Counted from the stretch's first letter, positions 12,009-28,662 are shown. The stretch is DNA of 64,000 nucleotides from an uncultured Flavobacteriales bacterium (GCA_963706125.1 CAVPLQ010000003.1:151571-215570), one strand, 5' to 3'. The notes: a model not told the origin generated them from the letters alone. Numbers and translations are program-made.

Positions 12009-12504
12009 GGCTCGGTCGGTCCGATCAAGGTGCATCCTCGGAAGCCCATCCATGATCCCGCCCCCTTCCTTTTGTTGCGTTATTTTTAGAACCTGTCTAT
12101 ATTTAGCCCCGCATCCCTGCAAGGATCACGTTGCCCTATGGAACAGAACGATAAGAAGGAGCCGGACACTGACCGCTCTTATACCGCCGAAAGCGGTGCC
12201 GCTCATCTCAACTTCGATCCGTTGAAGGATCTGAATCTTCCCTCAAGCTATGAGGAGGTCCTTTCCCGCTTTCGCCAATTACAGGGCGAACGCGCATGGG
12301 AGGCATTGAACTGAGCGAACGCCGTTCAGCATCTTGGCCCCGGGTTCTCCGGGGCTTTTTCGTTCACCACATATCACATAAGGGCTGTTGCCGGAATTTG
12401 GAGAAGTTCCGCGGCGGAGTAATTTCAGGCTTGCTAACGGCGGTGGCCGGTGCACTTGCCGGGAGCTTCACGTTCCTTCCTTAACAGGCAAACACCCTTG
12501 TGCC

Positions 12505-14634
12505 ATGAAGACCTATGATGAGAAACACATCAAGAACGTCGTACTGCTGGGCTCTCACGGATGCGGCAAGACGACGCTGGCCGAGACCATGCTCTTCGAA
12601 GCAGGCCTCACCACGCGCCGCGGCCGCATCGAGGACAAGAACACAGTGAGCGACTTTACCGAGCTGGAGCAGGAGCGCGGCTGTAGCGTCCACGCCACCT
12701 GCCTCCACACCGAGTGGCGGAACTACAAGATCAATGTGATCGATACCCCGGGGCTGGATGACCTTGCCGGGGAGGCCGTCCCAGCGATCCGCGTGGCCGA
12801 TACCTGCGTGCTGCTGTTGAACGCGCGCAACGGCGTGGAGGTGGGCACGGACCTGATCTGGGAGCATATCTCCTCCGCCTCGCGTCCGGTGATCATGGCC
12901 GTGAACCAGTTGGACCAGCCCTTGTCCGATTTCGAGGACACGGTGGCGCAGGCTAAGGAACACTATGGGAACGCCGTCACCCTGATGCAATATCCCTTGG
13001 AGCAGGGCGAAGGCTTTCACCGCATCATCGACCTTTTGAAGATGACGATGTATGTCTTTCCCGATGACGGCGGCAAGCCCCGCAAGGAATACATCCCCGC
13101 ACAGGAGCGCGATCGTGCCGAGGCCCTGCACAAAGTGCTGGTGGAAAAAGCGGCGGAGAACGACGAGGCCTTGATGGAACACTATTTCGAGCAAGGGGAA
13201 CTGAGCGAGGACGAGATGCGCGAGGGGCTCAAGAAGGGTATGATGTCCCGAAACTGCATTCCGGTATTCTGCCTCAGTGCATTGCGCAACATGGGAAGCG
13301 GGCGGCTGATGGGCTTCATCGACAATGTGGCGCCCAGCGCGGAAGAGATGCCTGCGGCGATAACGGAAGAAGGTGTTGAGCTGCCCTGCTCGATCTGCGG
13401 CCCCACGGTGCTGTTCACCTTCAAAACGACCATCGAACCCCGGAGCGGTCGCATCACGCTGTTCAAAGTGATGAGCGGTGAGTTGAAGGAAGGTGATGAA
13501 CTGACGAACGCCAACACCGATGCCAATGAGCGGTTGAACCAATTGTTCATCCTGGAAGGCAAGGAACGGAAACCCGTGGACCGGTTGGTGGCCGGGGATA
13601 TCGGTGGGGCCATGAAATTGAAGGACACCGGCACCGGGCAGACCCTGCATGCCAAAGGCGCCGAACAAAAGCTCCCAGCCATCGGATTTCCCGAACCACG
13701 CCTGCATCGAACGGTAAAGACCACCGACCCCAAACAGGAGGAGCGGTTGCACACAGCACTATTGGAGCTGCAACAGGAGGACCCGGCGTTCACCCTGCGC
13801 TACGTCCGCGAGACGGCCGAGCAGGTCATCGGCACCTTGGGTGAGCTGCATTTGGGCGTGATCCAGTGGAAACTGGCCAAGCAGTACAAAGTGGACGTGG
13901 AGTTCGGAAGTCCGCGCGTGGCGTACCGGGAAACGATCCGGAAGCCGGCGGCGGCCATGCACCGGCACAAAAAGCAGACCGGCGGCAGTGGCCAGTTCGG
14001 CGAGGTGCATCTGCGCATCGAGCCTTGGCATGAAGGCATGGAGGAACCCACCGGCGTGAGCATCCGCGGCAAGGAGGTGATCGATCTGCCCACCGGGGGC
14101 AAGCTGATCTTCTACAACTGCATCGTGGGCGGGGTGATCGACAACCGTTTCCTGCCCAGCATCCTCAAGGGTGTGATGGAGAAGATGGAGCAAGGCCCGC
14201 TCACCGGCTCACCCGCGCGGGACATCCGCGTAGTGGTGCATGATGGCAAGATGCACCCGGTGGACAGCAACGACATCAGCTTCCGCATCGCCGGTCTGAT
14301 GGCCTTCAAGGAAGCCTTCACCCAGGCGGACCCACAGTTGATGGAACCGATACAGGAAGTGGAAGTACGCGTGCCGGAGGAGCTCATGGGCGACGTGATG
14401 ACGGACCTGCAAAGCCGGCGAAGTATCATCCTCGGGATCGAAGGCACGGGACAGATACAGGTGATCAAAGCGCAAGTGCCGGTGGCCGAGCTGGACCGGT
14501 ACAGTACACGCCTGCGGAGCCTCACACAAGGCCGGGGCAGCCATACCGAACGCTTCCTTGAGTACAGGCCCATTTCCGCAGAGCTGCAGCACAAGCTGGT
14601 ACACGGCCATCTACGGGAGGAAACACCCGCTTGA
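12505..14634 (+). CDS. Elongation factor G-family translational GTPase, EF-G paralogue
   Basis: It contains the G1 motif GSHGCGKTTL and the G3 motif DTPG, plus EF-G domains II-V. It begins at MKTYDEKHIKNVVLLG. Confidence 0.8.
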   Translation: MKTYDEKHIKNVVLLGSHGCGKTTLAETMLFEAGLTTRRGRIEDKNTVSDFTELEQERGCSVHATCLHTEWRNYKINVIDTPGLDDLAGEAVPAIRVADTCVLLLNARNGVEVGTDLIWEHISSASRPVIMAVNQLDQPLSDFEDTVAQAKEHYGNAVTLMQYPLEQGEGFHRIIDLLKMTMYVFPDDGGKPRKEYIPAQERDRAEALHKVLVEKAAENDEALMEHYFEQGELSEDEMREGLKKGMMSRNCIPVFCLSALRNMGSGRLMGFIDNVAPSAEEMPAAITEEGVELPCSICGPTVLFTFKTTIEPRSGRITLFKVMSGELKEGDELTNANTDANERLNQLFILEGKERKPVDRLVAGDIGGAMKLKDTGTGQTLHAKGAEQKLPAIGFPEPRLHRTVKTTDPKQEERLHTALLELQQEDPAFTLRYVRETAEQVIGTLGELHLGVIQWKLAKQYKVDVEFGSPRVAYRETIRKPAAAMHRHKKQTGGSGQFGEVHLRIEPWHEGMEEPTGVSIRGKEVIDLPTGGKLIFYNCIVGGVIDNRFLPSILKGVMEKMEQGPLTGSPARDIRVVVHDGKMHPVDSNDISFRIAGLMAFKEAFTQADPQLMEPIQEVEVRVPEELMGDVMTDLQSRRSIILGIEGTGQIQVIKAQVPVAELDRYSTRLRSLTQGRGSHTERFLEYRPISAELQHKLVHGHLREETPA

Positions 14635-16701: not shown

Positions 16702-17184
16702 TCAAGACAGAAGGCTCTGCCGGAGGGCGAACTCCAATTGCCGATTGGATTCGATCAACTTCTTCGTGAAAGCGGCGCGCTCAAGTTCGGCCTTGTGATC
16801 GGCCCAAGCGGACATCACGGCCGTGCGGACCTCCTCGGCCTCCCAAGGCTTTTGGATGTAGTGGCACACCCCGGCCTGATTGAGCGCATCCACCAATGCC
16901 TGCAGGTCGGCATGGGCGGTTATCAACATCCGCCTCACCTGTGGGAACCGTTCCTTGATCTGGCGCAACGCCTCACAACCCACCACACCGGGCATACGCT
17001 GATCGCAGATCACCACATGGACCTCGTGCTGCTGTAATATGGGCCAAGCCTCAGGCAGGTCGGCCGCCACCAATACGTTGAAAGTGTTGCGGAACGCCGC
17101 CTTGAAGGTTTGCCTGTTAGCAGCCTCATCGTCGATATAGAGCACGGTGGGGAGCAGGGTTTGGGAACGGTGGATCTGATGCAT
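16702..17184 (-). CDS. Stand-alone response-regulator receiver (CheY-like) protein. Only a short helical C-terminal tail follows the receiver domain, and there is no DNA-binding output.
   Basis: LYIDDE...D(Q)RMPG...KPW are the conserved receiver positions (acidic pocket, phospho-Asp, Thr/Lys). Confidence 0.75.
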   Translation of the reverse strand: MHQIHRSQTLLPTVLYIDDEAANRQTFKAAFRNTFNVLVAADLPEAWPILQQHEVHVVICDQRMPGVVGCEALRQIKERFPQVRRMLITAHADLQALVDALNQAGVCHYIQKPWEAEEVRTAVMSAWADHKAELERAAFTKKLIESNRQLEFALRQSLLS

Positions 17185-17234
17185 GCTGTAGGGGGTTGAT
17201 CGTCAGCCTCCATACGTTGCTTGTCGAAAAAAAG

Positions 17235-17266
17235 TTATCAACGATCCGATCTTTTTTTGTTGATAA
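17235..17266. promoter_or_regulatory. Perfect 8-bp inverted repeat, TTATCAAC-N16-GTTGATAA, in the divergent promoter region. It is a candidate operator.
   Basis: The sequence is gttatcaacgatccgatctttttttgttgataagg. It lies between the response-regulator start at 17184 and the E1-nitroreductase start at 17325. Confidence 0.35.
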
Positions 17267-17324
17267 GGTCCGCCATGCTACATTCGACCCCTATTCATCG
17301 TCATTCACAGCCAGTTATTGCTCT

Positions 17325-19643
17325 ATGGACAACACGTTGGAAACCTTACTGGCCGCCGGTACCGTTCCCGGCACGGACGAATACCGTCCCACGTTCTATC
17401 GGCTTCCTGCCGACGAGGCGGCCTTGAAGAACCTCCTCAAAAGCAGGCCCGGCATCCGGGTATCGGACCACATACTGGCACAGGTACGCGAACTGGTGAA
17501 GTCACTTGCTCCGAGCACGCAGTTCACTAATGATTCACTCGATGAAGCTGTAAACAAGCACCTGTCAGGCAGGAAGTTGATCAACTATGGCTCATGGGTC
17601 TTCTATCCATGGAGCGACCGCTTGGTACACGTGCTTGATGAGGAGGAGTTCAGCGTGGTGCGCACCGACAGGAACCGTAACAAGATCACCCGCGAAGAGC
17701 AGGCCGTGCTCGCCACGAAGAAGATCGGCGTCATCGGCTTGTCCGTAGGGCAATCCGTTAGCGTGACCATGGCCCTGGAACGCTGTTTCGGCGAGATCCG
17801 GCTGGCGGACTTTGACACCTTGGACCTCAGTAACTTGAACCGCATCCGGTCCGGCACCCACTCCTTGGGCTTGAACAAGACCATTGTAACCGCCCGAGAG
17901 ATCGCAGAGCTGGACCCTTACCTGAAGGTGATCTGCTTTACGGACGGCCTCACCAAGGAGAACATGGACGCCTTCTTCACCAAAGATGGAAAATTGGACA
18001 TATTGGTGGAGGAATGCGACAGTGTGGACATCAAGATCCTGGCCCGGCAAAAAGCCAAGTCACTGGGCATTCCGGTGGTGATGGACATGAGCGACCGCGG
18101 CTGCTTGGACGTGGAACGTTTCGATCTGGAGCCCGAACGGCCCCTGATGCATGGCTGGATCGACCATCTCGACCTGGAAGCGGCCACCCTCCCCATGACA
18201 GCGGAGGAAAAAGTGCCCTACATGCTGCCCATTTCGGGCGTGGACACGCTAAGCCCCCGGATGAAAGCCTCGGTGATCGAACTGGGCCATACCGTGAGCA
18301 CCTGGCCGCAGCTTGCCACCTCGGTGGTGTTAGGCGGCGCCTTGGCCGGGGATACCGTAAGGCGCATCGCGCTCGACCAGTTCCACGCCTCGGGCCGTTG
18401 GTTCGTCGACTTAGAGGAAATAGTGGCCGATCCGCCGGCACCTGCCTCTCCAGCCCCATCCGTACCACCAGCGTTCGAGCTCCTTTCCTCCGACATCGAG
18501 GCCATGGACGAACACCTGGGCCATGCCCCTTCCGATGCGCTTGATCTTGATCAGGAAATGGTCGAGCAGCTTGTAGTGGCAGGTGGCATGGCACCGAGCG
18601 CGGGCAACATGCAGCCTTGGAAATTCATTTGGAGCCAAAAACGCTTGCTGCTTTTCCATGACGAGAGCCGCTCGTATTCCCAACTAGATCCGGACCATCA
18701 GATCGCGGATGTTTCATTGGGAGCTTGTATTGAGAACATCGTTTTGAAGGCCCATGAACTGGGGTTAGAGGTACGGTCCACGCTTTCCCCGGACAAGAAC
18801 ACACCGTCGCTAACCGCCATGTTCGACTTCCTTGGTTCACCCGCCAAGGGCACGGAACCCCATGTGGTGGATGATCTGGCCCCCATGATCGCAAAACGAT
18901 GTACCAATCGCAAATTCGCCCTGCCGCAGCCCTTGCCGGAAGGAGCTGTTGAACGCATGGTTAAAGCGGTCCTGACGATGCCCGGATGCACTGCCGACCT
19001 GCTTGACAGCCGTGAGTCGCTTTCCAGATTAGCCGACCTGTGCGGTGCGGCCGAACGGATACGGGCGGTCAATCCCATCGGCCACCGGGAATTCTTTGGG
19101 CATGAGGTGCGCTGGACGGAGGAAGAGGCTAAGCGGACCAAGGACGGTCTGGACTTGGCCACGATGGAACTTCGCCCGGTCGACCTGGCGGGAATGCAAG
19201 TGGCTTCCGACCCACGCGCGATCGAGCTGATCGATCAATGGCGGGGAGGTAAGGGGTTCGAGGGGATCTCAGCACCGGCGATCCGCATGTCTTCCGCAGC
19301 GGCATTGATAAGCGTCACGGACAATACCAAACAGGGGCGCCTGAACGGAGGTCGTGCGATGGAGCGGCTATGGATGAGGGCCAATGCCGAAGGACTCTCC
19401 GTCCACCCGGTCGCGGCCCCCATCTTCCTTACGCAGATGTTGCCATACGACCTAAAAGCATTTAGGGACCATGAGCGTGCCGAGCTGGAGCAGATCCGAG
19501 ACAACTTCAACACCCTTTGGGGCCTTATCGGTCGGCATCCGTTGTTCCTGGTCAGATTGACCCCCGGTAGCGAACCCAGCGCACGCTCCTTGCGCCTTGA
19601 CCTCCAGGACCTATTCCTCCAAACTCCGATAACCGCGTCCTAG
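17325..19643 (+). CDS. E1-like (ThiF/MoeB/HesA) adenylyltransferase domain fused to a tandem nitroreductase-fold (SagB/McbC-like) module. The architecture resembles MoeY/Rv1355c.
   Basis: The ThiF signature is KKIGVIGLSVGQS...LADFDTLDLSNLNRI. The nitroreductase signatures are GMAPSAGNMQPWKF, a second half-domain beginning KRCTNRKFA, and ...VHPVAAPIF. The start was chosen at the ATG 141 bp from the divergent receiver gene. Confidence 0.7.
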   Translation: MDNTLETLLAAGTVPGTDEYRPTFYRLPADEAALKNLLKSRPGIRVSDHILAQVRELVKSLAPSTQFTNDSLDEAVNKHLSGRKLINYGSWVFYPWSDRLVHVLDEEEFSVVRTDRNRNKITREEQAVLATKKIGVIGLSVGQSVSVTMALERCFGEIRLADFDTLDLSNLNRIRSGTHSLGLNKTIVTAREIAELDPYLKVICFTDGLTKENMDAFFTKDGKLDILVEECDSVDIKILARQKAKSLGIPVVMDMSDRGCLDVERFDLEPERPLMHGWIDHLDLEAATLPMTAEEKVPYMLPISGVDTLSPRMKASVIELGHTVSTWPQLATSVVLGGALAGDTVRRIALDQFHASGRWFVDLEEIVADPPAPASPAPSVPPAFELLSSDIEAMDEHLGHAPSDALDLDQEMVEQLVVAGGMAPSAGNMQPWKFIWSQKRLLLFHDESRSYSQLDPDHQIADVSLGACIENIVLKAHELGLEVRSTLSPDKNTPSLTAMFDFLGSPAKGTEPHVVDDLAPMIAKRCTNRKFALPQPLPEGAVERMVKAVLTMPGCTADLLDSRESLSRLADLCGAAERIRAVNPIGHREFFGHEVRWTEEEAKRTKDGLDLATMELRPVDLAGMQVASDPRAIELIDQWRGGKGFEGISAPAIRMSSAAALISVTDNTKQGRLNGGRAMERLWMRANAEGLSVHPVAAPIFLTQMLPYDLKAFRDHERAELEQIRDNFNTLWGLIGRHPLFLVRLTPGSEPSARSLRLDLQDLFLQTPITAS

Positions 19644-19666
19644 CTCCGCAGCTCAAACCAGATCAG

Positions 19667-20425
19667 ATGGAACAGGTAACACTCATCAGCTTCAGGGCTC
19701 CGCAAGAACCTGCGCTTTGCGAAGAATTCAAGACAGAGCATGCCAAGGTCTTGGAGGACTTCGGCATATTGAATGTAACAAAATGCAGTGGTGAATGGCA
19801 TTTGGACAATGATTGCCATGTTATCGTCGCCGTGCATCCCCAGCTTGGAATGGTCGGAGGCATTCGCTTGCAATTGGACCACGAGGGTTTTAAATTACCC
19901 ATGGAAGTTGCCGTGGGGGGACAGGATGCACGCGTGGGCGAGTTCCTGAGCAATATCCGCGAATTAGGGAATGGCGAAGTCTGTGGCCTCTGGAATGCGA
20001 GTCGCTACGCCAACATGGGCGTCCCGGTACTTTTAAGCCAAGCTGTCACCGCGATCTCATTGCAAGCCGGCATGAAGCGCATGGTCTGCTTGGTGGCGCC
20101 CTATACCAAGCGACACCCAAGCAACAATGGGTTCGTCCTGGTGGAAGAGGTTGGCGAGAAAGGTGTTTTTGCATATCCTCGCCCCGATTTCAAAGGAATA
20201 GTCATGCTCAATCCGGACACCCATTTGCTCAGTTATGCACATCCCTTGCAACGGGCGGTCCTGATGAGCCTTCGGGTACGTCCGGTCCAGACCCGGATCG
20301 AGCAACCTGGCCGCGCACCGCTGGAAGTGCACTATCAACTTCAGGTAAATTCCGACCAAGGCCAAGCCGAGGCCTATCAGTATATCCTAGAGGACCACCG
20401 CAGATACCTCGGTCGGGTCGCGTAA
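19667..20425 (+). CDS. GNAT-fold N-acyltransferase resembling the autoinducer-synthase (LuxI) / N-acyl-amino-acid-synthase superfamily. This is a tentative call.
   Basis: The motif pattern is HAKVLEDFGIL...GEWHLDNDCHVIVAV...GMVGGIRLQL (RxxVF...ExDxyD...GxvGxxRL), with a later WNASRYA that resembles the SRFAV-like motif. It sits 24 bp after the E1-nitroreductase gene on the same strand. Confidence 0.4.
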   Translation: MEQVTLISFRAPQEPALCEEFKTEHAKVLEDFGILNVTKCSGEWHLDNDCHVIVAVHPQLGMVGGIRLQLDHEGFKLPMEVAVGGQDARVGEFLSNIRELGNGEVCGLWNASRYANMGVPVLLSQAVTAISLQAGMKRMVCLVAPYTKRHPSNNGFVLVEEVGEKGVFAYPRPDFKGIVMLNPDTHLLSYAHPLQRAVLMSLRVRPVQTRIEQPGRAPLEVHYQLQVNSDQGQAEAYQYILEDHRRYLGRVA

Positions 20426-20456
20426 CCCGAAGGCTGCCTTGCCGTAGTAAGGTGCC

Positions 20457-22634
20457 ATGGAACGAAGCGGCCGGTGGCACCGGCTCATTCCCTATTGGCT
20501 TGCAGTGGTCAGCTCCTTCTTGTTGGGAATTGTTCCATGCCATGCATCGGGAATGCCCCAGCTGGATGGGTACATGTTCAATGGGGAAGATCGCTCCCCC
20601 TATTTAGGCCGGCAACTCACGATCTTCGAGGATAAGAGTGGAAGGATGACCCTTCCGGAGGTCCTGCATTCCGGATCGTTCCAACCGCAATCCTCTGATA
20701 TACCGGATCTTGGCCTCAGTCGGTCCGCATACTGGGTCAGACTTAATCTGTACAATCTATCGCCATCCGACCGGATATTCCTTCACATCGCCCACAGTGA
20801 GATCGATGAGTTGGATATTTATGAATTAACGGACAATGACCAGTTCTCCCGAATTGTGCGCGCCGGCCTTTCCCGAAAAGTGGACACCCGATCACAGTCG
20901 ACATCCGAATTCGCTTTCCCGGTCCAAGTACCCCAATTCACCAAGGGGAGCTTCTACATCCGGCTTCGCAGCACGAAGCAGTTACGACTGCCGATCACTG
21001 CGGAATCATCCCAAGGTTTTTATGCTCAGCAGTTAAACCGGAACTTGTTCATTGGGGGCTATCTGGGCATCATGCTTGTGATGGCCTTGTATAATTTCTT
21101 CATTTTCTTCTCAACCCGGGAAAAGGCCTACGCATACTACGTGGCCTACATCATCCTGGTCGCATTGACCCAGATGGCGTTTATCGGAATGCTCGCATTC
21201 ACGGTATTTCAGGACATGCCTTGGCTGTCGTCCCATTCGGCATTGTACCTCACTGCCTTCACGGCTATCGCCGCCTGCGAGTTCATGGTGCGTTTCATCC
21301 ATATGAAGGACCTCTATCCGGGTTGGATGCGTGTCATGCGGTTCTTCTATGTGGCATTGTTGCTTGGGCTGGTGATCGATCTGGACGCGCATTCTTCCAT
21401 GGCCTATCGGGTCATTCAAGTCGGGGCCGGGAGTTTTGCGCTTTTTCAACTTGTGGTCCTCATCCACGTTGCGGCGCAAGGGTCACGACCGGCGCGTTAC
21501 TTTCTCTTGGCATGGATCTCCTTCCTACTGGGCATTATTTCCTTTATTTTTAAGGACTTCGGAATCTTACCCTTCAACGATCTTACCCGCTTTGCCATGA
21601 CCATCGGCTCTGCGGTGGAGGTCGTCCTACTTTCCTTCGGTCTGGCCGATAAGATCAACGTGCTCCGCCAGGAAAAGGAACTATCCCAGGCGAATGCCAT
21701 CGCCATGGCCAAGGAGAATGAACTCTTCGTCCTGAACCAGAACGTAGACTTGGAACGGAAGGTGATCGAACGGACACATGCCCTGCAGGAGACCAATGAT
21801 CATTTGAAGCGCACCCAGACACAGCTGGTGAGCGCCGAGAAGATGGCGTCATTGGGCCAATTGACCGCCGGCATCGCCCATGAGATCAACAACCCGTTGA
21901 ATTTCATCAGCAGCAACCTCCCCCCGCTCAAACGCGATCTGCTGGAGCTTAAAGAGGTATTGGACGCGTATCGCAGCGTCACAAAGGACGGTGCCGGACT
22001 TGAGGATGTGCGAGCCTTGGAGGAGCGTATCGGCGTAGACTTCACGGTTAACGAGGTGCGGGAGATCCTCAATTGCATTGAGACCGGCGCGACGCGCACC
22101 TCGGACATCGTTCGCGGCCTGCGCACGTTCAGCCGGTTGGATGAGGACGATCTGAAGACGGCGGACATCAACGAGGGGCTACGCAGCACCGTTGTGGTGC
22201 TGGGCCCCCAGTTCCGTGATGTGGTGCAAATTGAATATGAACTGGGTGATATCCCGCAGGTCGAATGCTATCCGGGCAAGTTGAATCAGGTGTTCATGAA
22301 CCTCCTGAACAACGCGGCCCATGCGGTGAAGCAGCGGCACGGCGATTCCGGCGGGGTGATCGGGATCGCCACGTCCATCAGTGGTGAAGTGGTCACGATC
22401 ACGATCAGTGACAATGGCATGGGTATGAACGAGGCCGTTCAAAGCCGGATGTTCGAACCGTTCTTCACCACTAAAGACGTGGGTGAAGGCACCGGGCTCG
22501 GGCTGTCGATCGTTCAGGGTATCATCGAGAAACACAACGGGGTTATCGAACTGGAGAGTGCGGTGGGGCAAGGCAGTACGTTCACCATTACACTACCGGT
22601 CTCGCAGACGGTAGAACTCGCAAAAAGTGCTTGA
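20457..22634 (+). CDS. 7TMR-DISM-type sensor histidine kinase. It has an extracellular DISMED2-like domain, a 7TM domain, a HisKA domain and a HATPase_c domain.
   Basis: It has a signal peptide and an extracellular domain. Seven predicted TM helices lie between about aa 195 and 400. The H-box is GIAHEINNPL, and N, G1 and G2 boxes are present (NLLNNAAHA, DNGMGM, GTGLGL). Confidence 0.75.
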   Translation: MERSGRWHRLIPYWLAVVSSFLLGIVPCHASGMPQLDGYMFNGEDRSPYLGRQLTIFEDKSGRMTLPEVLHSGSFQPQSSDIPDLGLSRSAYWVRLNLYNLSPSDRIFLHIAHSEIDELDIYELTDNDQFSRIVRAGLSRKVDTRSQSTSEFAFPVQVPQFTKGSFYIRLRSTKQLRLPITAESSQGFYAQQLNRNLFIGGYLGIMLVMALYNFFIFFSTREKAYAYYVAYIILVALTQMAFIGMLAFTVFQDMPWLSSHSALYLTAFTAIAACEFMVRFIHMKDLYPGWMRVMRFFYVALLLGLVIDLDAHSSMAYRVIQVGAGSFALFQLVVLIHVAAQGSRPARYFLLAWISFLLGIISFIFKDFGILPFNDLTRFAMTIGSAVEVVLLSFGLADKINVLRQEKELSQANAIAMAKENELFVLNQNVDLERKVIERTHALQETNDHLKRTQTQLVSAEKMASLGQLTAGIAHEINNPLNFISSNLPPLKRDLLELKEVLDAYRSVTKDGAGLEDVRALEERIGVDFTVNEVREILNCIETGATRTSDIVRGLRTFSRLDEDDLKTADINEGLRSTVVVLGPQFRDVVQIEYELGDIPQVECYPGKLNQVFMNLLNNAAHAVKQRHGDSGGVIGIATSISGEVVTITISDNGMGMNEAVQSRMFEPFFTTKDVGEGTGLGLSIVQGIIEKHNGVIELESAVGQGSTFTITLPVSQTVELAKSA

Positions 22635-22636
22635 CC

Positions 22637-24169
22637 ATGGACATGGAACGCATCAAAGTCCTTTATGTGGACGACGAGGAAGGCAACCTGATGGCCTTCC
22701 GGGCGAGCTTTCGCCGGGATTTCGACATCCACGTGGCGTTAAGCGCTTCGGAGGCCTTGGCCTGGTTGGAGCAGAACACAGTGCATGTGGTGATCAGCGA
22801 CCAGCGGATGCCGGGCATGACCGGTTCCGAATTCCTTGCCATTGTTAAGACACGCTGGCCGCGGTGCGTCCGATTGTTGCTCACAGGGTTCTCGGATATT
22901 CAGGCCGTGGTCGACGCGATCAACTTGGGCGGCATCCATGCTTACATCACCAAGCCCTGGGACCCCACGGACCTCAAGCTCCGGATCGAGCAAGCACACG
23001 AAGTACATGCTCTACGCGAAGAGCGGGAACGGCTTTTCGACCGGTACCGGCAAGTATTCGACGCCTCGGGCGACCCGATCGTGATCGTGGACGGCAAAGG
23101 CTGCTTCCGTGAAATGAACGAGGCCGCCGAACAGTTGATGAAGGTGGACCGGGCCACCATGCTCAACTCCGGCTTGGGCACATTCGTGACGGATCTTCCC
23201 GAAGTGGTCCGCCGAATGCGGCACAATCGGCACGGCCGCACCTACAGAAATGTGGAAGTGACCCTGCACACACCGGGCGGCCATACCATTGACTGCTTAG
23301 TGACCGCCACGCGGGTGGGACGGACCCCGGAGGGTGTCAGCATGTACCAGGCGATGATCAAGGATATCACCGACCGGAAGCAACAGGAAGCTTACTTGAA
23401 AAAGCTCAACAGTGATCTGGATAAACGAGTGGTGGTACGGACCAAACAACTGCTTGAGGCCTTGGACGATCTGGGCGCTTTCTCGTATTCGGTGGCCCAC
23501 GACCTTCGTTCCCCATTGAAGAACATTAAAGTACTCAGCGACCATTTAAGCAGCCTGGCAGCCGTGCGCGGTGATGAGGAAGAGCGCGACCTCAGCCATC
23601 GGATCCACAAAGGGGCATCACGCTTGATCAACCTGGTGGACGACCTGTTGCGCTTTGCCCGCACGGACTCCCAACAGGTGGAATGCCGGGACACCGATAT
23701 CAACGAGATCATGCAAGAGTGCCTTAGTGACCTGGCCTTGCCGCAGGAGCATGTGGAATTCGTGTTTCCGGAACCGGGCACTGCCATCATCCATGCGGAT
23801 CCCGCCATGGTGAAGGTGGCGCTGAACAACCTGCTTACCAATGCGGTCAAATTCACCCGGAACACGGCCCAGGCCCGGATCGAGGTGGGTCATGCAACGA
23901 AGGACGGCGATGACATCATCTGGGTGAAGGACAACGGCGTCGGCTTCGAGAGCCAGAAGAAAGACCAGTTGTTCGGTGTCTTCAAGCGGCTTCACACCAC
24001 TGCCCAGTTCGAAGGCACAGGGATCGGACTGGCCCTTGTGAACCGCATCATGAAGAAGCATGGTGGTTCCTGCTCGGCTGAAGGTACCCCAAATGAAGGC
24101 GCGACCATCTATCTGCGGTTTCCCGGTCAGCGGCAGGCCGACGAAATGCAATACCGTCAAGCCGGTTGA
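22637..24169 (+). CDS. Hybrid signalling protein: N-terminal receiver, then PAS, then HisKA/HATPase histidine kinase
   Basis: The receiver region reads KVLYVDDE...SDQRMPG...KPW. The kinase has the H-box SVAHDLRSPL and a HATPase region NAVKFT...DNGVGF...GTGIGLA. It overlaps the upstream kinase stop, which suggests translational coupling. Confidence 0.75.
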   Translation: MDMERIKVLYVDDEEGNLMAFRASFRRDFDIHVALSASEALAWLEQNTVHVVISDQRMPGMTGSEFLAIVKTRWPRCVRLLLTGFSDIQAVVDAINLGGIHAYITKPWDPTDLKLRIEQAHEVHALREERERLFDRYRQVFDASGDPIVIVDGKGCFREMNEAAEQLMKVDRATMLNSGLGTFVTDLPEVVRRMRHNRHGRTYRNVEVTLHTPGGHTIDCLVTATRVGRTPEGVSMYQAMIKDITDRKQQEAYLKKLNSDLDKRVVVRTKQLLEALDDLGAFSYSVAHDLRSPLKNIKVLSDHLSSLAAVRGDEEERDLSHRIHKGASRLINLVDDLLRFARTDSQQVECRDTDINEIMQECLSDLALPQEHVEFVFPEPGTAIIHADPAMVKVALNNLLTNAVKFTRNTAQARIEVGHATKDGDDIIWVKDNGVGFESQKKDQLFGVFKRLHTTAQFEGTGIGLALVNRIMKKHGGSCSAEGTPNEGATIYLRFPGQRQADEMQYRQAG

Positions 24170-24233: not shown

Positions 24234-24752
24234 ATGAAAAACACAGCATTCACCCTGATCGCCCTTTTCGCGGCACCGACCTTCTGCCATGCCCAAAAAC
24301 TGGTGGAAAACAGGGACCAGGCCTCTGGTTGGTATGTGCCCGTAAAACTGAACGTGACCGCTGAAGGCACCAAGGCCAAGCACCTCGATGTGCAAGTCTA
24401 TCAAGACAACGAACTACTGCAGGAGATCCACTCCAAAAGAGGCAAGTTCACACTGAACTTGGACCTTGACAACACGTACACCTTCGTCCTTATCCAAGAA
24501 GGTTATCGCGCAAAATCAGTCTTCATCGACACCCATGTTCCGGACAAGTTGGTGCAATATTCAGAGTATGCGTGCTTCATGAACCTGGAAGCGGCCGACA
24601 AATTCACCCACTCCGATCCCTTCTACATGGATTTCCCGGGTGCGATCGTCAGGTGGAACGATGAGGCGCACGGATTCACGCCCAGCATGGGCTACCTCAC
24701 GGACATCCAGTCCAAGATCGGCATGCTGGAAGCTCAGATTATCCCACACTGA
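24234..24752 (+). CDS. Secreted hypothetical protein
   Basis: Signal peptide MKNTAFTLIALFAAPTFCHAQ. No recognisable family. Confidence 0.45.
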   Translation: MKNTAFTLIALFAAPTFCHAQKLVENRDQASGWYVPVKLNVTAEGTKAKHLDVQVYQDNELLQEIHSKRGKFTLNLDLDNTYTFVLIQEGYRAKSVFIDTHVPDKLVQYSEYACFMNLEAADKFTHSDPFYMDFPGAIVRWNDEAHGFTPSMGYLTDIQSKIGMLEAQIIPH

Positions 24753-24842: not shown

Positions 24843-25934
24843 TCAGTGCTGGTCGTAGTCCACTACTACGCGCTCGGTCAGCGGGTGGCTCTGGCAGGTG
24901 AGCACATAGCCGTCCGCCACCTCCTCGTCGGTGAGCGCGTAATTCATGTCCATGGCCACCTTGCCTTCCACGATGCGGGCCTTGCAGGTGCAGCAAACCG
25001 CGCCCTTGCACGCGTATGGCACGTCCAGTCCCGCAGCCTCCGCGGTGTCGAGAATGCTATCGCCCTTCGCCCCTACTTCGATCTCCGTTTCGTTACCGTC
25101 GAGAATGATCTTCACTTTGGCCTTCCCGGTCAGGGGCGCGCCGCTTGAGGGAGCTGCGGGAGTTTCAGGCTTCTTCGGCTCGCTGGTCACCGGTGTGGAG
25201 AACAGTTCCACATGGATGTGCTTCTTTTCCACGCCGGAACGCTCCAAGGCCTCGCTCACGTTCACCATCATCTGCTCGGGTCCGCAGATGAAGAATTCCT
25301 TGTGCAGCGGGTCGTTCACAAAAGCCTTCAGCAGGTTCACGGCTTTTTCATTGGTGATGCGGCCATTGAAAAGCGCCTCCATATCATTCCCGCGGCTCAG
25401 GATGTGGAATACGTTGAGACGGTCCGGGTGGTGGTTCTTCAATTCGTCCAATTTCTTCCGGAAGATGATGCGGTCCACGTCGGAATTGCCGAAGAACAGG
25501 GTGAACTTGCTCTTATGCTCAGTGCGGAGCACCGTGGTGAGGATACTGAGGATGGGCGTGATACCGCTGCCGGCCGCGAAGGCGATGTAATGGTGCTCTT
25601 GTGCGGGGTCCAGCGCGGTGTGGAAGTTGCCCATGGGCGTCATCACCTCCAGCTTGGAGCCGGGCTTGAGCTGTTCCACCAGCTGCGTGGAGGCCCTGCC
25701 TCCGTCCACTTTCTTCACCGCGATGCGGATCTCACCCGGGTCCAGCGGGCTGCTGCAGATGCTGTACGACCGGCGCAGTTCGGTGCCGTTGACATTGAGC
25801 TTCAGGGTAAGGTACTGGCCATGGATGAAGGTGAAGTCGGCCATCAGCCCAGGCGGGACGCGGAAGCCGATGGAAATACTATCCGCGGTCTCGTGATGGA
25901 TGTCGGCTACTTCAAGGGTATGGAAACGGGCCAT
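24843..25934 (-). CDS. paaE: Phenylacetyl-CoA 1,2-epoxidase reductase subunit PaaE (ferredoxin-NAD(P) reductase plus a 2Fe-2S ferredoxin domain)
   Basis: It has a flavin-binding motif RSYSICS, an NAD-binding GxGxxP-type motif (FAAGSGITP), and a C-terminal CxxxxCxxC...C [2Fe-2S] motif. It begins [15 protein letters not shown], like E. coli PaaE. Confidence 0.8.
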
Positions 25935-26094
25935 TCTGACTGGGGTATCTGACATTGCGGACAAAGGCGCCCCGGAGCATGTGGACCGGGCGGGCGGCAA
26001 AAATAGCCGCCGATCACCGCATCGCGAAGCCTGTGGCATATATCGAAACCCATCGCCTATCGCTCCTTACCTTAGCGACCACCAATCACGCAGG

Positions 26095-27036
26095 ATGATG
26101 GAAGAGAAACAGGCCGAGCAGGACTTTCAACGGAAAGTGGATGCCGAGCAGAAGATCGAACCGAAGGATTGGATGCCGGCGGACTACCGGAAGAACCTGA
26201 TCCGGCAGATCAGCCAGCACGGGCACAGCGAGATCGTGGGCATGCTGCCCGAAGGCAACTGGATCACCCGGGCGCCCAGCTTGCGCCGCAAGACCGTGCT
26301 TTTGGCCAAGGTTCAGGACGAGGCAGGCCATGGCCTCTACCTGTATAGCGCTGCTGAGACCCTGGGCATCGGACGTGATGAGATGGTGGACCAACTGCTC
26401 AGCGGCAAGGCCAAGTACAGCAGCATCTTCAACTACCCCACCATCACCTGGGCGGACATGGGTGCGATAGGCTGGTTGGTGGACGGTGCCGCGATCATGA
26501 ATCAGGTGATGCTCTGCAGAACGAGCTACGGCCCTTACGCCCGCGCCATGGTGCGCATCTGCAAGGAGGAGAGCTTCCACCAGCGGCAGGGGTATGAGAT
26601 CATGACCGTGCTGAGCAATGGCACGGCGGAGCAAAAGGCCATGGCACAGGACAGTCTGGACCGCTGGTGGTGGCCCAGCCTGATGATGTTCGGCCCCAGC
26701 GACGCGGAAAGCCCGCACAGCGCCCAGAGCATGAAATGGAAGATCAAGCGGCAGAGCAACGACGAACTGCGCCAGACCTTCATCGACCGCACCGTGCAGC
26801 AAGCCGAAGTGCTTGGATTGAAGATCCCCGACCCCAAGCTGAAATGGAATGAGGAAACGCAGCATTACGACTGGGGCGAGATCGACTGGACGGAGTTCTT
26901 CGACGTGATCAAAGGCAACGGACCGTGCAACAAGGAGCGGATGGCAGCACGCCGGAAAGCCTATGAGGACGGGGCTTGGGTGCGCGAGGCGGCGTTGGCG
27001 TATGCAGAGAAAAAAGCAAAGCGGAAGGCCGCGTAG
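26095..27036 (+). CDS. paaA: 1,2-phenylacetyl-CoA epoxidase catalytic subunit PaaA
   Basis: The di-iron carboxylate fold has Glu/His ligand motifs ([18 protein letters not shown]). The arrangement is paaABCD. Confidence 0.8.
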
Positions 27037-27117
27037 TTGTCAGTTCTTCGTTGTCAGTTGTCAGGCGTTGCCGCGCCAAGCACCATTCACCTATCACAAA
27101 ACACCGATCACTGGTAC

Positions 27118-27408
27118 ATGAGCAACGAAAAAGACTGGCCCCTCTGGGAGATCTTCATCCAGAGCAAACGCGGCTTGGACCACAAACATGTGGGCAGCCT
27201 CCACGCCGCCGATGCCCAAATGGCCATTGAAAACGCCCGTGACGTATATACGCGACGCAATGAAGGCAACAGCATCTGGGCGGTGCTGGCGGAGAACATC
27301 CATTCCAGCATGCCGGAGGACCAAGGCGCCTTCTTCGACCCAGCGGACGACAAAGTGTACCGGCATCCCACCTTCTATGTGATGCCCAAAGAGGCGAAGT
27401 ATATCTGA
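27118..27408 (+). CDS. paaB: 1,2-phenylacetyl-CoA epoxidase subunit PaaB
   Basis: MSNEKDWPLWEIFIQSKRGLDHKHVGSLHAADAQMAI is a typical PaaB sequence. Confidence 0.8.
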   Translation: MSNEKDWPLWEIFIQSKRGLDHKHVGSLHAADAQMAIENARDVYTRRNEGNSIWAVLAENIHSSMPEDQGAFFDPADDKVYRHPTFYVMPKEAKYI

Positions 27409-27410
27409 CC

Positions 27411-28169
27411 ATGACACAACAAGAAGCCTTGTTCCGCTATGCGGTGCGCATGGGCGACAACAGCTTAGTGCTGGGCCACCGCCTTAGTGAATGGTGCGGT
27501 CACGGCCCCCAGTTGGAAGAAGACATCGCACAGGCGAACATCGCTCTGGACCTGATCGGGCAGGCCCGCAACTACCTCACCTATGCCGGGGAGGTGGAAG
27601 GCAAAGGCCGCAGCGAGGACGATCTCGCCTATCTGCGCACCGACCGCGAATACCTGAACGTATTGCTGACCGAACTGCCCAAGGGCGATTATGCGCAGAC
27701 CATCGCCCGCAGCTTCCTCTTTGACGCATTCCACCTGCCGTTGCAGCAAGCGCTCACCACCAGCACCGACGAGCGCTTGAAGGGCATCGCGGAAAAATCC
27801 GTAAAGGAAGTGACCTACCACCTGCGCCACAGTAGCGAGTGGTTGATCCGTTTCGGTGACGGCACCGAGGAGAGCCACGACCGCGCACAAACCGCGCTGG
27901 ACAACCTGTGGCGCTACACGGGCGAGCTTTTCATCCCGGATGAGGCGGAAGAGCGATTGGCCAAGGCCGGTATTGCCCCGAAGCTGGACGACATCAAGAA
28001 TGAATGGAGCACCACGGTGGACAGCGTGTTGAAAGAAGCCACCCTGGAACGACCCGCGGACGGCTGGATGGCTACCGGCGGCAAGAAGGGCGTGCATTCT
28101 GAGCACATCGGACCCATGCTGGCGGAGATGCAGACACTTCAACGCACCTACCCCGGCGTGGAGTGGTAA
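27411..28169 (+). CDS. paaC: 1,2-phenylacetyl-CoA epoxidase subunit PaaC
   Basis: PaaC-like sequence and operon position. Confidence 0.75.
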   Translation: MTQQEALFRYAVRMGDNSLVLGHRLSEWCGHGPQLEEDIAQANIALDLIGQARNYLTYAGEVEGKGRSEDDLAYLRTDREYLNVLLTELPKGDYAQTIARSFLFDAFHLPLQQALTTSTDERLKGIAEKSVKEVTYHLRHSSEWLIRFGDGTEESHDRAQTALDNLWRYTGELFIPDEAEERLAKAGIAPKLDDIKNEWSTTVDSVLKEATLERPADGWMATGGKKGVHSEHIGPMLAEMQTLQRTYPGVEW

Positions 28170-28179
28170 ACGGAGAAAG

Positions 28180-28662
28180 ATGAGGACCGAGGCAGAGATC
28201 CGGGACCTGTTGGAGCAGGTGAAGGACCCCGAGATCCCCGTGATCAGCATCCAGGAGTTGGGTGTGCTTCGCGATGTGAAAGTGGACGGTGACCTGGTGG
28301 AGGTGACCATTACACCCACCTACAGCGGATGCCCTGCCATGGACGTGATGAAGGAGGATGTGGAAAAGGCGCTTCGCGAAGCCGGGATCGAGCGGTTCAA
28401 CGTGAAGCAAGTGCTCTCCCCGGCATGGAGCACGGACTGGATCAGCGAAAGCGGCCGGAAACATCTGCTGGATTACGGCATTGCCCCCCCGCCGCACACC
28501 TCGGACATCCGTGCCTTGAAAGGTGGTGTTCCGGTGACGGCCTGCCCCCAATGTGGCAGCACCGACACGGTTTTGGTGAGCCAGTTCGGGTCCACGGCGT
28601 GCAAGGCGCTGTACAAGTGCAATGCGTGCAAAGAGCCGTTCGATCTGTTCAAGTGCTTGTGA
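28180..28662 (+). CDS. paaD: Phenylacetate-CoA oxygenase subunit PaaD, with a DUF59-type domain and a C-terminal Cys cluster
   Basis: It contains VKDPEIPVISIQELGVL and a C-terminal CPQCGS...CKALYKCNACKEPFD. Confidence 0.75.
   Translation: MRTEAEIRDLLEQVKDPEIPVISIQELGVLRDVKVDGDLVEVTITPTYSGCPAMDVMKEDVEKALREAGIERFNVKQVLSPAWSTDWISESGRKHLLDYGIAPPPHTSDIRALKGGVPVTACPQCGSTDTVLVSQFGSTACKALYKCNACKEPFDLFKCL

Follow-up and report, generated by a model that had tools for sequence, protein, structure and literature searches.

We analyzed a 64,000-nucleotide stretch of DNA from an uncultured Flavobacteriales bacterium (GCA_963706125.1 CAVPLQ010000003.1:151571-215570; the whole stretch is called the window below), in which four genes on the plus strand and a divergent response regulator gene occupy positions 16702 to 24169. 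Our best full explanation is that, with genes 1 and 2, Bacteroidota have their own version of the trzA/trzS (oxzA/oxzB, tyzACB) pair, which directs N-acyl-oxazolone synthesis, and that these genes belong to a module coupled to a phosphorelay. We assign this reading a probability of about 0.7. Taken jointly, the predicted enzymology and its functional coupling to the phosphorelay are highly probable. The kind of enzyme pair is already known and is now extended to another phylum, and its coupling to a 7TMR-DISM phosphorelay appears to be new. The features are listed in window coordinates (aa, amino acids).

16702-17184, minus strand: REC-only response regulator gene, 160 aa, divergent from the other four genes.
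17185-17324, no strand: divergent control region, 140 bp.
17325-19643, plus strand: gene 1, predicted trzS/oxzB-type oxazolone synthetase, 772 aa (NF005901, Pfam ThiF and Nitroreductase).
19667-20425, plus strand: gene 2, predicted trzA-like N-acyl amino acid synthase, 252 aa, with a GNAT/acyl-homoserine lactone (AHL)-synthase-like fold.
20457-22634, plus strand: gene 3, 7TMR-DISM sensor histidine kinase, 725 aa (Pfam).
22637-24169, plus strand: gene 4, REC-PAS-HisKA-HATPase hybrid kinase (Pfam).
24234-24752, plus strand: protein of 172 aa without a Pfam or NCBIfam match; its N-terminus resembles a signal peptide.

Three N-acyl-oxazolone pathways have been characterized: OxzA/OxzB, the tyrazolone/phenazolone synthetase of Pseudoalteromonas rubra (bioRxiv 10.1101/2020.06.11.147165); TyzACB of Mycobacterium tuberculosis (PMC10404671); and TrzA/TrzS (TrzAS, Rv1356c/Rv1355c), for N-acyl-tryptazolones in Mycobacterium and Rhodococcus (PMC12856293). 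ThiF-like enzymes have also been reviewed (PMC12596934). In all three pathways, an acyltransferase of the N-acyl amino acid synthase (NAS) type first N-acylates an aromatic amino acid (PMC12856293, PMC10404671, bioRxiv 10.1101/2020.06.11.147165). A ThiF-like enzyme then uses ATP to close the acylated amino acid into an oxazolone, which an O2-dependent flavin oxidase of the Acg type desaturates. The OxzAB, TyzACB, and TrzAS papers call the physiological role of N-acyl oxazolones unknown and speculate about signaling (or stress). The trz authors pointed out that oxazolones resemble signaling molecules and that M. tuberculosis trzAS lies beside cyclic di-GMP (c-di-GMP) turnover genes (PMC12856293). 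An earlier note on this DNA knew of no characterized system with the enzyme combination and regarded the function of the Rv1355c/MoeY architecture as still unknown. Both statements are outdated: Rv1355c is TrzS, which has been characterized (PMC12856293), and the combination is that of OxzAB, TyzACB, and TrzAS. The E1 catalytic Cys, whose absence the note would have counted as a weakness, is irrelevant to oxazolone chemistry.

Gene 1 has a ThiF-like ATP-dependent cyclase domain (approximately aa 90 to 365) followed by an Acg-type tandem-nitroreductase flavin-dependent oxidase domain (approximately aa 405 to 765). It scored 743.6 bits against the NF005901 "Rv1355c family protein" equivalog model (cutoff, 476), aligning from aa 28 to 762 with model positions 21 to 716 of 722. 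The Pfam ThiF and Nitroreductase models scored 61.5 and 46.6 bits, and the Acg-family model NF047509 matched aa 416 to 700 at 142 bits, which is under its stand-alone cutoff of 199. A sequence search with gene 1 against Protein Data Bank (PDB) chains gave no match. Actinobacterial plasmid proteins annotated as "Rv1355c family" could be aligned with gene 1 over 86 to 93% of its length, at 33 to 36% identity. In the ThiF part, G135xxGLSVG142, D162, D164, N170, N172, R173, D232, D257, and G259 are invariant between gene 1 and these proteins. The motifs found there are the Gly-rich loop, N170-L-N-R173, and the Asp of "ECD" (D232), which probably corresponds to TrzS D217. In the oxidase part, the invariant residues are A423, P424, G427, N428, Q430, P431, W432, R529, R580, and H587, and APxxGNxQPW is a shared motif. 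Gene 1 is thus an Rv1355c/TrzS-type ThiF cyclase with an intact adenylation site and has the Acg-type flavin-dependent oxidase fused to it. What connects genes 1 and 2 to the named proteins is the NCBIfam model, together with gene context and taxonomy.

Gene 2 was harder to place. It had no Pfam or NCBIfam match, including to PF00765 and PF13444 at E ≤ 0.01, and a gene 2 profile found no match among PDB chains, nor did tblastn of gene 2 against plasmids. Gene 2 falls outside the FeeM and NAS families (PF21926, PF13444), and of its distant relatives only P0257 reached the FeeM model, at 21.3 bits, under the 27-bit cutoff. It also falls outside the LuxI type, as judged by the PF00765 model and the N-terminal Arg/Phe/Trp/Asp residues. 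Nevertheless, an AlphaFold model made from 54 sequences (predicted local distance difference test, 91.2; predicted template modeling score, 0.87) had a NAS/LuxI-like fold, and the solved structure closest to it was FeeM. The sequence identity to FeeM and LuxI-type AHL synthases (PDB 2g0b, 1ro5, and 3p2h) is 9 to 13%, and unlike them gene 2 has an additional C-terminal beta-hairpin/helix region of approximately 60 residues. The earlier assignment of gene 2 as LuxI/NAS-like therefore holds for the fold but not for membership in Pfam Autoind_synth or Acetyltransf_5.

The first search for gene 2 relatives returned 122 proteins, all "hypothetical" and from uncultured Flavobacteriales or Bacteroidetes. 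In a profile search of 1.84 billion representatives, the family comprised 588 representatives at 50% identity. A broader second profile search found 799 relatives, and the named ones are all from Bacteroidota (Sphingobacterium, Mucilaginibacter, Rubrolithibacter, Chitinophagaceae, Cytophagaceae, and Daejeonella), nearly all annotated as "hypothetical protein." E104 never varies across the broad family, and H25, W44, G65, R67 (GG-x-R motif), C106, and W109 almost never do. We built a second family from a 259-aa hypothetical protein beside a Rhodococcus Rv1355c-family gene, the TrzA position. This TrzA-position family has 410 proteins from Rhodococcus, Williamsia, Mycobacterium, Mycolicibacterium, and Nocardia. 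One member is followed by a 738-aa Rv1355c-family protein (998 bits) and then by a GAF-GGDEF-EAL protein, which is the M. tuberculosis Rv1356c-Rv1355c-Rv1354c arrangement. When the two families were compared by hhalign, they aligned over 194 columns with 97.4% probability (E = 1.5e-11), and the GG-x-R, catalytic-Glu, Trp, and Tyr-Pro positions fell in register. This kinship was visible only with the broad profile A2 and profile-profile comparison. The narrow gene 2 profile A1 had no match in the actinobacterial Rv1355c loci and was not significant against single neighbor sequences. By this comparison gene 2 is an adjacent N-acyl amino acid synthase homologous to TrzA/OxzA, and its family can now be described, from sequence, as TrzA-like N-acyl amino acid synthases.

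The gene 2 domain also occurs in other architectures. A 632-aa protein annotated as "Rv1355c family protein" (P0264, L064 6409-8307) has a gene-2-like domain fused to the C-terminal side of a ThiF domain. Elsewhere, a gene-2-like domain lies C-terminal to a TIR domain (P0231, 570 aa, L070 269-1981) or to leucine-rich repeats (P0172, 662 aa, L069 1670-3658), and P0123 (479 aa) is a tandem duplicate of the domain. Kinases were absent near the ThiF, TIR, and leucine-rich repeat fusions in the L064, L070, and L069 contexts. The fusions to TIR and leucine-rich repeats may reflect another role of the domain, perhaps one in biological conflict.

Compared with the characterized systems, genes 2 and 1 share with TrzA/TrzS the two-protein logic, the ThiF-cyclase/flavin-oxidase fusion, and signaling genes as neighbors. 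The order differs, with acyltransferase then synthetase in trz and often synthetase then acyltransferase in Bacteroidota. The neighbors also differ, being c-di-GMP enzymes there and a 7TMR-DISM kinase, a REC-kinase, and REC proteins here. At the sequence level, the relationship is the 33 to 36% identity of gene 1 to actinobacterial homologues and a profile-level match for gene 2, and the oxidase is optional in Bacteroidota. OxzAB and TyzACB resemble the module in having an N-acyltransferase, a ThiF protein, and a nitroreductase-type oxidase, fused (OxzB) or split (TyzB/TyzC). However, OxzB has been reported from alpha-, beta-, and gammaproteobacteria only (56 proteins; bioRxiv 10.1101/2020.06.11.147165), and the OxzAB and TyzACB papers describe no kinase linkage.

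The oxidase domain is not always present. In 18 of the 59 loci of our genome scan (described below), gene 1 stops after the ThiF domain, at approximately 365 to 375 aa, and no oxidase is encoded within the locus (L005, L007-L010, L012, L013, L015, L016, L026, L041, L042, L044, L047, L048, L052, and L059, plus the cut contig L006). ThiF-only forms were also found in Thermoflavifilum, Sphingobacterium, and L071 and in 5 of 36 metagenome loci. They are not monophyletic but scattered on the ThiF-domain tree. Therefore, the oxidase fusion has been gained or lost repeatedly. TrzS with a crippled oxidase, or with limiting O2, yields the cyclized saturated intermediate (PMC12856293). By analogy, ThiF-only modules would probably end the pathway at the saturated oxazolone if no other locus supplies an oxidase. 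Such modules either need no more than this saturated form or use an oxidase from another locus.

The enzyme pair is tightly linked to the two kinases. Our genome scan yielded 59 loci, all from Flavobacteriales or Bacteroidota metagenome-assembled genomes, and every sufficiently long locus had the same genes in the same order. However, unrelated flanking genes were equally conserved (elongation factor G2 [EF-G2], an M1-type peptidase, and the PaaABCDE epoxidase genes), and so the 59-locus set alone shows lineage synteny, not function. More telling were six distant stand-alone Bacteroidota contexts with unrelated flanks, in which the enzyme pair, the 7TMR kinase, and the REC-kinase were present in six of six. 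In Thermoflavifilum thermophilum, the order is acyltransferase, ThiF-only gene, 7TMR kinase, and REC-kinase, and Sphingobacterium has the same order plus a REC-only gene. Mucilaginibacter arboris has a divergent REC gene and then ThiF-oxidase, acyltransferase, 7TMR kinase, REC-kinase, and REC, whereas the order in a Cytophagaceae metagenome-assembled genome is acyltransferase, ThiF-oxidase, 7TMR kinase, REC-kinase, and REC. The remaining two contexts with this core are a second Flavobacteriales lineage and one 3.3-Mb genome. The acyltransferase gene thus lies before or after the ThiF gene, and most of these contexts have a REC-only gene.

We also scanned metagenomes with an alignment of the ThiF domain. 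This gave 80 loci, which were annotated by hidden Markov models (HMMs) made from the module proteins. These loci are the closest relatives of this ThiF domain (at least 53% identity) and describe the Bacteroidota subfamily only. Thirty-six of them had at least 4 kb of flank on both sides and were counted. The acyltransferase and the 7TMR-DISM kinase were present in all (36/36 each), and the REC-kinase and a REC-only gene were each present in 35/36. There were 15 gene orders. The kinases lie upstream in one locus and on the opposite strand in one. The REC-kinase comes after the 7TMR kinase in 35/36. The earlier note had asked whether the same four genes would turn up together in other Bacteroidota genomes. 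They do so across Flavobacteriales, Sphingobacteriales, Chitinophagales, and Cytophagales-type contigs, with varied flanks and shuffled order. This conserved linkage bears out its suggestion of a dedicated phosphorelay beside an acyltransferase and an adenylating and oxidizing enzyme. In one metagenome contig (L073, Ga0209063_1000007, 317 kb), the ThiF half is 95% identical to that of gene 1 and the whole module is present; this contig could provide a much longer stretch of surrounding genome.

Outside Bacteroidota, the actinobacterial loci carry GGDEF/EAL or other genes in place of the kinases. In a Rhodococcus plasmid (L062 1851-5944) and a metagenome contig (L072 5001-9869), TrzA-like/TrzS-like pairs lie beside GGDEF or GAF-GGDEF-EAL genes. 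Therefore, the same enzyme pair is flanked by signaling genes in two phyla, although these are of different types. A plasmid of Kitasatospora sp. NBC_00070 encodes a 616-aa "ThiF family adenylyltransferase" (L061 4263-7147). Its C-terminal half shares 48% identity with the ThiF domain of gene 1, and an additional N-terminal domain of approximately 245 aa aligns weakly in a GNAT/NAS-like register (hhalign E = 7.6e-4, probability 25%). The gene after it encodes a ketoacyl-ACP (acyl carrier protein) synthase III, and a LuxR-type regulator is encoded nearby. This arrangement may be another pathway variant. No report of a 7TMR-DISM/oxazolone-pair linkage was found in the searchable literature, which omits most subscription journals, so a prior description is possible. 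The supplement of the trz paper does not mention Bacteroidota or kinases.

Gene 3 is a 7TMR-DISM sensor kinase by four Pfam models, all over their cutoffs (7TMR-DISM_7TM, 143.5 bits; 7TMR-DISMED2, 86.5; HATPase_c, 88.2; HisKA, 36.3). Its parts are an extracytoplasmic DISMED2 domain, a seven-transmembrane (7-TM) bundle, a HisKA domain with H475 in a HEINNP H-box, and a HATPase domain. RetS and LadS of Pseudomonas share the DISMED2 domain, 7-TM bundle, and kinase core. Kinases of the RetS/LadS type are not known to be encoded with a small-molecule synthase, and their reported cues are calcium or glycans. Gene 4 consists of REC, PAS, HisKA, and HATPase_c domains, with D55 and H288 as the phosphorelay residues (numbered from the ATG at 22637). 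The REC-kinase ORF (open reading frame) is 519 to 581 aa near the window and approximately 365 aa elsewhere, and by ORF length the PAS insertion seems restricted to the subclade of the window. The divergent REC-only protein matches Pfam Response_reg at 82 bits and ends in a C-terminal helix of approximately 35 aa, without an output domain. Its phospho-acceptor is D61, in a CDQRMPG motif. The receivers of gene 4 and the REC-only protein are 38 to 47% identical and have the DQRMPG motif in common.

The 140-bp region between the divergent genes contains two interleaved 8-nt inverted repeats (17227-17266), rather than the "perfect palindrome" described before. Pair 1 is AAAAAAAG/CTTTTTTT (17227-34/17251-58) and pair 2 is TTATCAAC/GTTGATAA (17235-42/17259-66); in both, 16 nt separate the two arms. 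When the control region was shuffled 5000 times, two pairs of this kind were present in 1% of the shuffled sequences. The right arm GTTGATAA (17259-17266) is a conserved GTTnATAA box and overlaps a TTTG at 17256-17259. The box was found upstream of gene 1 in 47 of 55 related intergenic regions, mostly as a direct tandem 11 bp apart (e.g., GTTGAAAActtGTTAATAA), and among these regions only those of the window and 7 close relatives have its inverted partner. A TAcaTTCG-like element is conserved approximately 20 nt downstream of the box; in the window, TACATTCG lies at 17279-17286, 19 nt past the box. The Bacteroidota promoter consensus is TTTG at -33 and TAnnTTTG at -7. The TTTG and TACATTCG resemble this -33/-7 type and may be the gene 1 promoter. 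The GTTnATAA box could be a promoter element, an operator, or both, and is a candidate operator overlapping the promoter. A sigma-70 promoter scan was uninformative, as is to be expected in Bacteroidota.

The gene layout suggests an operon. An ORF list contained all five genes that the earlier note had placed here. The size it gave for the shared control region was right, as were its domain calls for gene 1, gene 3, gene 4, and the divergent REC gene, which Pfam and NCBIfam reproduced. It had also described close packing, with spacings of 24, 32, and about 3 bp. The packing is close, but the gaps between genes 1/2, 2/3, and 3/4 are 23, 31, and 2 bp, or a 4-bp overlap in the last case if gene 4 starts at the alternative TTG at 22631. 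The longest ORF of gene 1 begins with a TTG at 17196, but we favor the ATG at 17325 because of the homologue N-termini and the promoter-like box at 17279-17286. A simple scan that ran from the start of gene 1 to the stop of gene 4 found only one plus-strand terminator-like site, a weak one within gene 4. With our own HMMs, no second kinase, receiver, ThiF, or acyltransferase of the module types was found in the window. The enzyme pair, the two kinases, and at least one REC-only protein form a module that is conserved in Bacteroidota and probably co-transcribed.

The surroundings of the module were also inspected. The 172-aa downstream protein has counterparts of 34 to 73% identity in most of the 59 genome loci, with two copies in L024 and L052. 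Its position is held by a REC-only gene in distant modules or other orders. Its membership in the module is doubtful, because its downstream synteny is confined to the Flavobacteriales clade. Farther downstream, paaE (minus strand) and then paaA, paaB, paaC, and paaD (24843-28662) form a complete phenylacetyl-coenzyme A (CoA) epoxidase set, all over NCBIfam cutoffs. Their adjacency to a pathway for lipids derived from aromatic amino acids is probably a coincidence, since they are syntenic with the module in the Flavobacteriales clade only. An EF-G-like gene (12502-14634) scored 934 bits against the Bacteroidota "elongation factor G2" model, just under the cutoff of 1000. It seems unrelated to the module and part of the clade-wide synteny.

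We propose the following mechanism, in which the enzymatic steps are drawn by analogy with the characterized pathways. The GNAT-fold synthase of gene 2 would N-acylate an amino acid, with acyl-CoA or acyl-ACP as the donor. In gene 1, the ThiF-like domain would adenylate the carboxylate and close the 5(4H)-oxazolone ring, and the flavin oxidase domain would desaturate the C-alpha/C-beta bond using O2. The 7-TM kinase (gene 3, H475) would perceive either the oxazolone, which is lipid-like, or the N-acyl amino acid released by its hydrolysis and would phosphorylate the gene 4 receiver (D55), and the gene 4 kinase (H288) would in turn control the REC-only protein (D61). Such a circuit of synthase and receptor kinase would parallel CqsA/CqsS or LqsA/LqsS/LqsR. 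In CqsA/CqsS, LuxM/LuxN, and LqsA/LqsS/LqsR, a synthase gene likewise lies beside genes for a polytopic membrane histidine kinase and a receiver. The signals of these systems are hydrophobic acylated small molecules. However, they have no sequence kinship with the module and use another sensor type and chemistry, and sensing here is our inference.

The conserved linkage suggests that oxazolone lipids act in signaling. The earlier idea of an acylated signal that is both made and sensed is supported in its first half, the logic for synthesis of an acylated molecule, by homology and by analogy with known pathways; its second half, sensing by the kinase, is more tentative. That the product of the pair is the ligand of the 7TMR kinase is plausible, at somewhat less than even odds. 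The broadest form of the proposal is a widespread Bacteroidota cell-cell or self-signaling circuit, in which the TrzA/TrzS-like oxazolone (or its ring-opened form) would be the cognate 7TMR-DISM ligand and would act through a kinase-to-kinase-to-REC relay. We regard this form as tentative and rather doubtful.

Several observations weigh against the proposal. The 36/36 result is limited to the Bacteroidota subfamily, and the actinobacterial homologues do without such kinases. Gene 2 is a remote homologue of the TrzA-position family, and its substrate and product could differ from the characterized cases. No output domain, whether DNA-binding or enzymatic, is encoded in the module. The oxidase is absent in 18/59 loci and several distant modules, and therefore a desaturated oxazolone is not the universal signal. 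Two-component genes often cluster with biosynthetic genes that they merely regulate. Also, DISMED2 is usually discussed as a carbohydrate- or ion-sensing domain, not a lipid-sensing one.

The main rival to product sensing is a reversal of this logic. The phosphorelay would respond to some unrelated cue from outside the cell or from its envelope, such as a glycan, an ion, or membrane stress. The oxazolone would not be the ligand but an output or co-regulated product, which could serve as a stress lipid, an antibiotic, or a component of the membrane. We consider this a serious possibility, although the odds are against it. It would fit reports that sub-inhibitory antibiotics induce proteobacterial oxazolones and that the M. 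tuberculosis tyz locus is tied to oxidative stress (bioRxiv 10.1101/2020.06.11.147165, PMC12856293), and tryptazolones are reported to be mostly intracellular (PMC12856293). The conserved DISMED2 ectodomain of gene 3 is consistent with such a cue, and the conserved promoter box that precedes gene 1 points to regulation of its expression. However, the module encodes no transcription factor output that could switch the operon on, and the kinases are inside the same apparent operon as the enzymes, not upstream of it. Linkage kept through 15 rearrangements is typical of synthase/receptor pairs, although a regulator/target relation is still compatible with it.

The names MoeY and ThiF raise another explanation, in which the locus would be a peptide-modifying (thiazole/oxazole microcin-like) system or a molybdopterin or thiamine sulfur-carrier E1 system. 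This is very improbable. Gene 1 does combine a ThiF fold with a McbC-like nitroreductase fold and has weak matches to MoeB/ThiF models, but the MoeB/ThiF/TcdA models scored far under their cutoffs and the Rv1355c model far over its own. In the module proteins there is no YcaO, MoaD/ThiS, or rhodanese domain, and the defense-type E1-E2 architecture was not found. Characterized members of the same architecture work on N-acyl amino acids (PMC12856293, PMC12596934). The likeness of gene 1 to thiazole/oxazole-modified microcin enzymes, raised in the earlier note, is unneeded: both YcaO and a precursor peptide are lacking, and enzymes of this type are known to act on a small molecule. YcaO was absent by Pfam and NCBIfam from the module and flanking proteins checked; the 36 metagenome loci, in which the recurring module is made up of just the five gene types, were screened with seven home-made HMMs only, which alone does not exclude YcaO there. 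A defense system was also rejected, because PADLOC gave only generic E1-fold matches for gene 1 (at most 25.5 bits). It gave single matches of less than 25 bits for gene 4 and the REC-only protein and none for gene 2.

A chance juxtaposition, in which the five genes are neighbors only through the synteny of one Flavobacteriales lineage, would agree with the EF-G2, M1-type peptidase, and PaaE/PaaA flanks that share their order in the 59 loci, but it is extremely unlikely and is already contradicted by the distant contexts, in which other taxonomic orders have the core between entirely different flanks and with its genes rearranged, by the module in 36/36 metagenome loci with enough flank, and by the ThiF-acyltransferase fusion protein.

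The phosphorelay-coupled oxazolone module bears on two gaps in what is known of Bacteroidota. We know of no established dedicated autoinducer system in this phylum, and to our knowledge the natural ligands of 7TMR-DISM sensors are mostly unknown. A previously unannotated protein family, that of gene 2, gains a description. Because the same enzyme pair is tied through many rearrangements to one receptor-kinase phosphorelay, the question of what oxazolones do becomes testable, and the circuit hypothesis can be tested in culturable Sphingobacterium spp., M. arboris, and T. thermophilum. If the kinase link is merely regulatory, then the locus is still a well-supported new member of the oxazolone biosynthetic family. 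If the circuit is real, then it would give the oxazolone lipid class a physiological role and a 7TMR-DISM receptor a class of small-molecule ligand.

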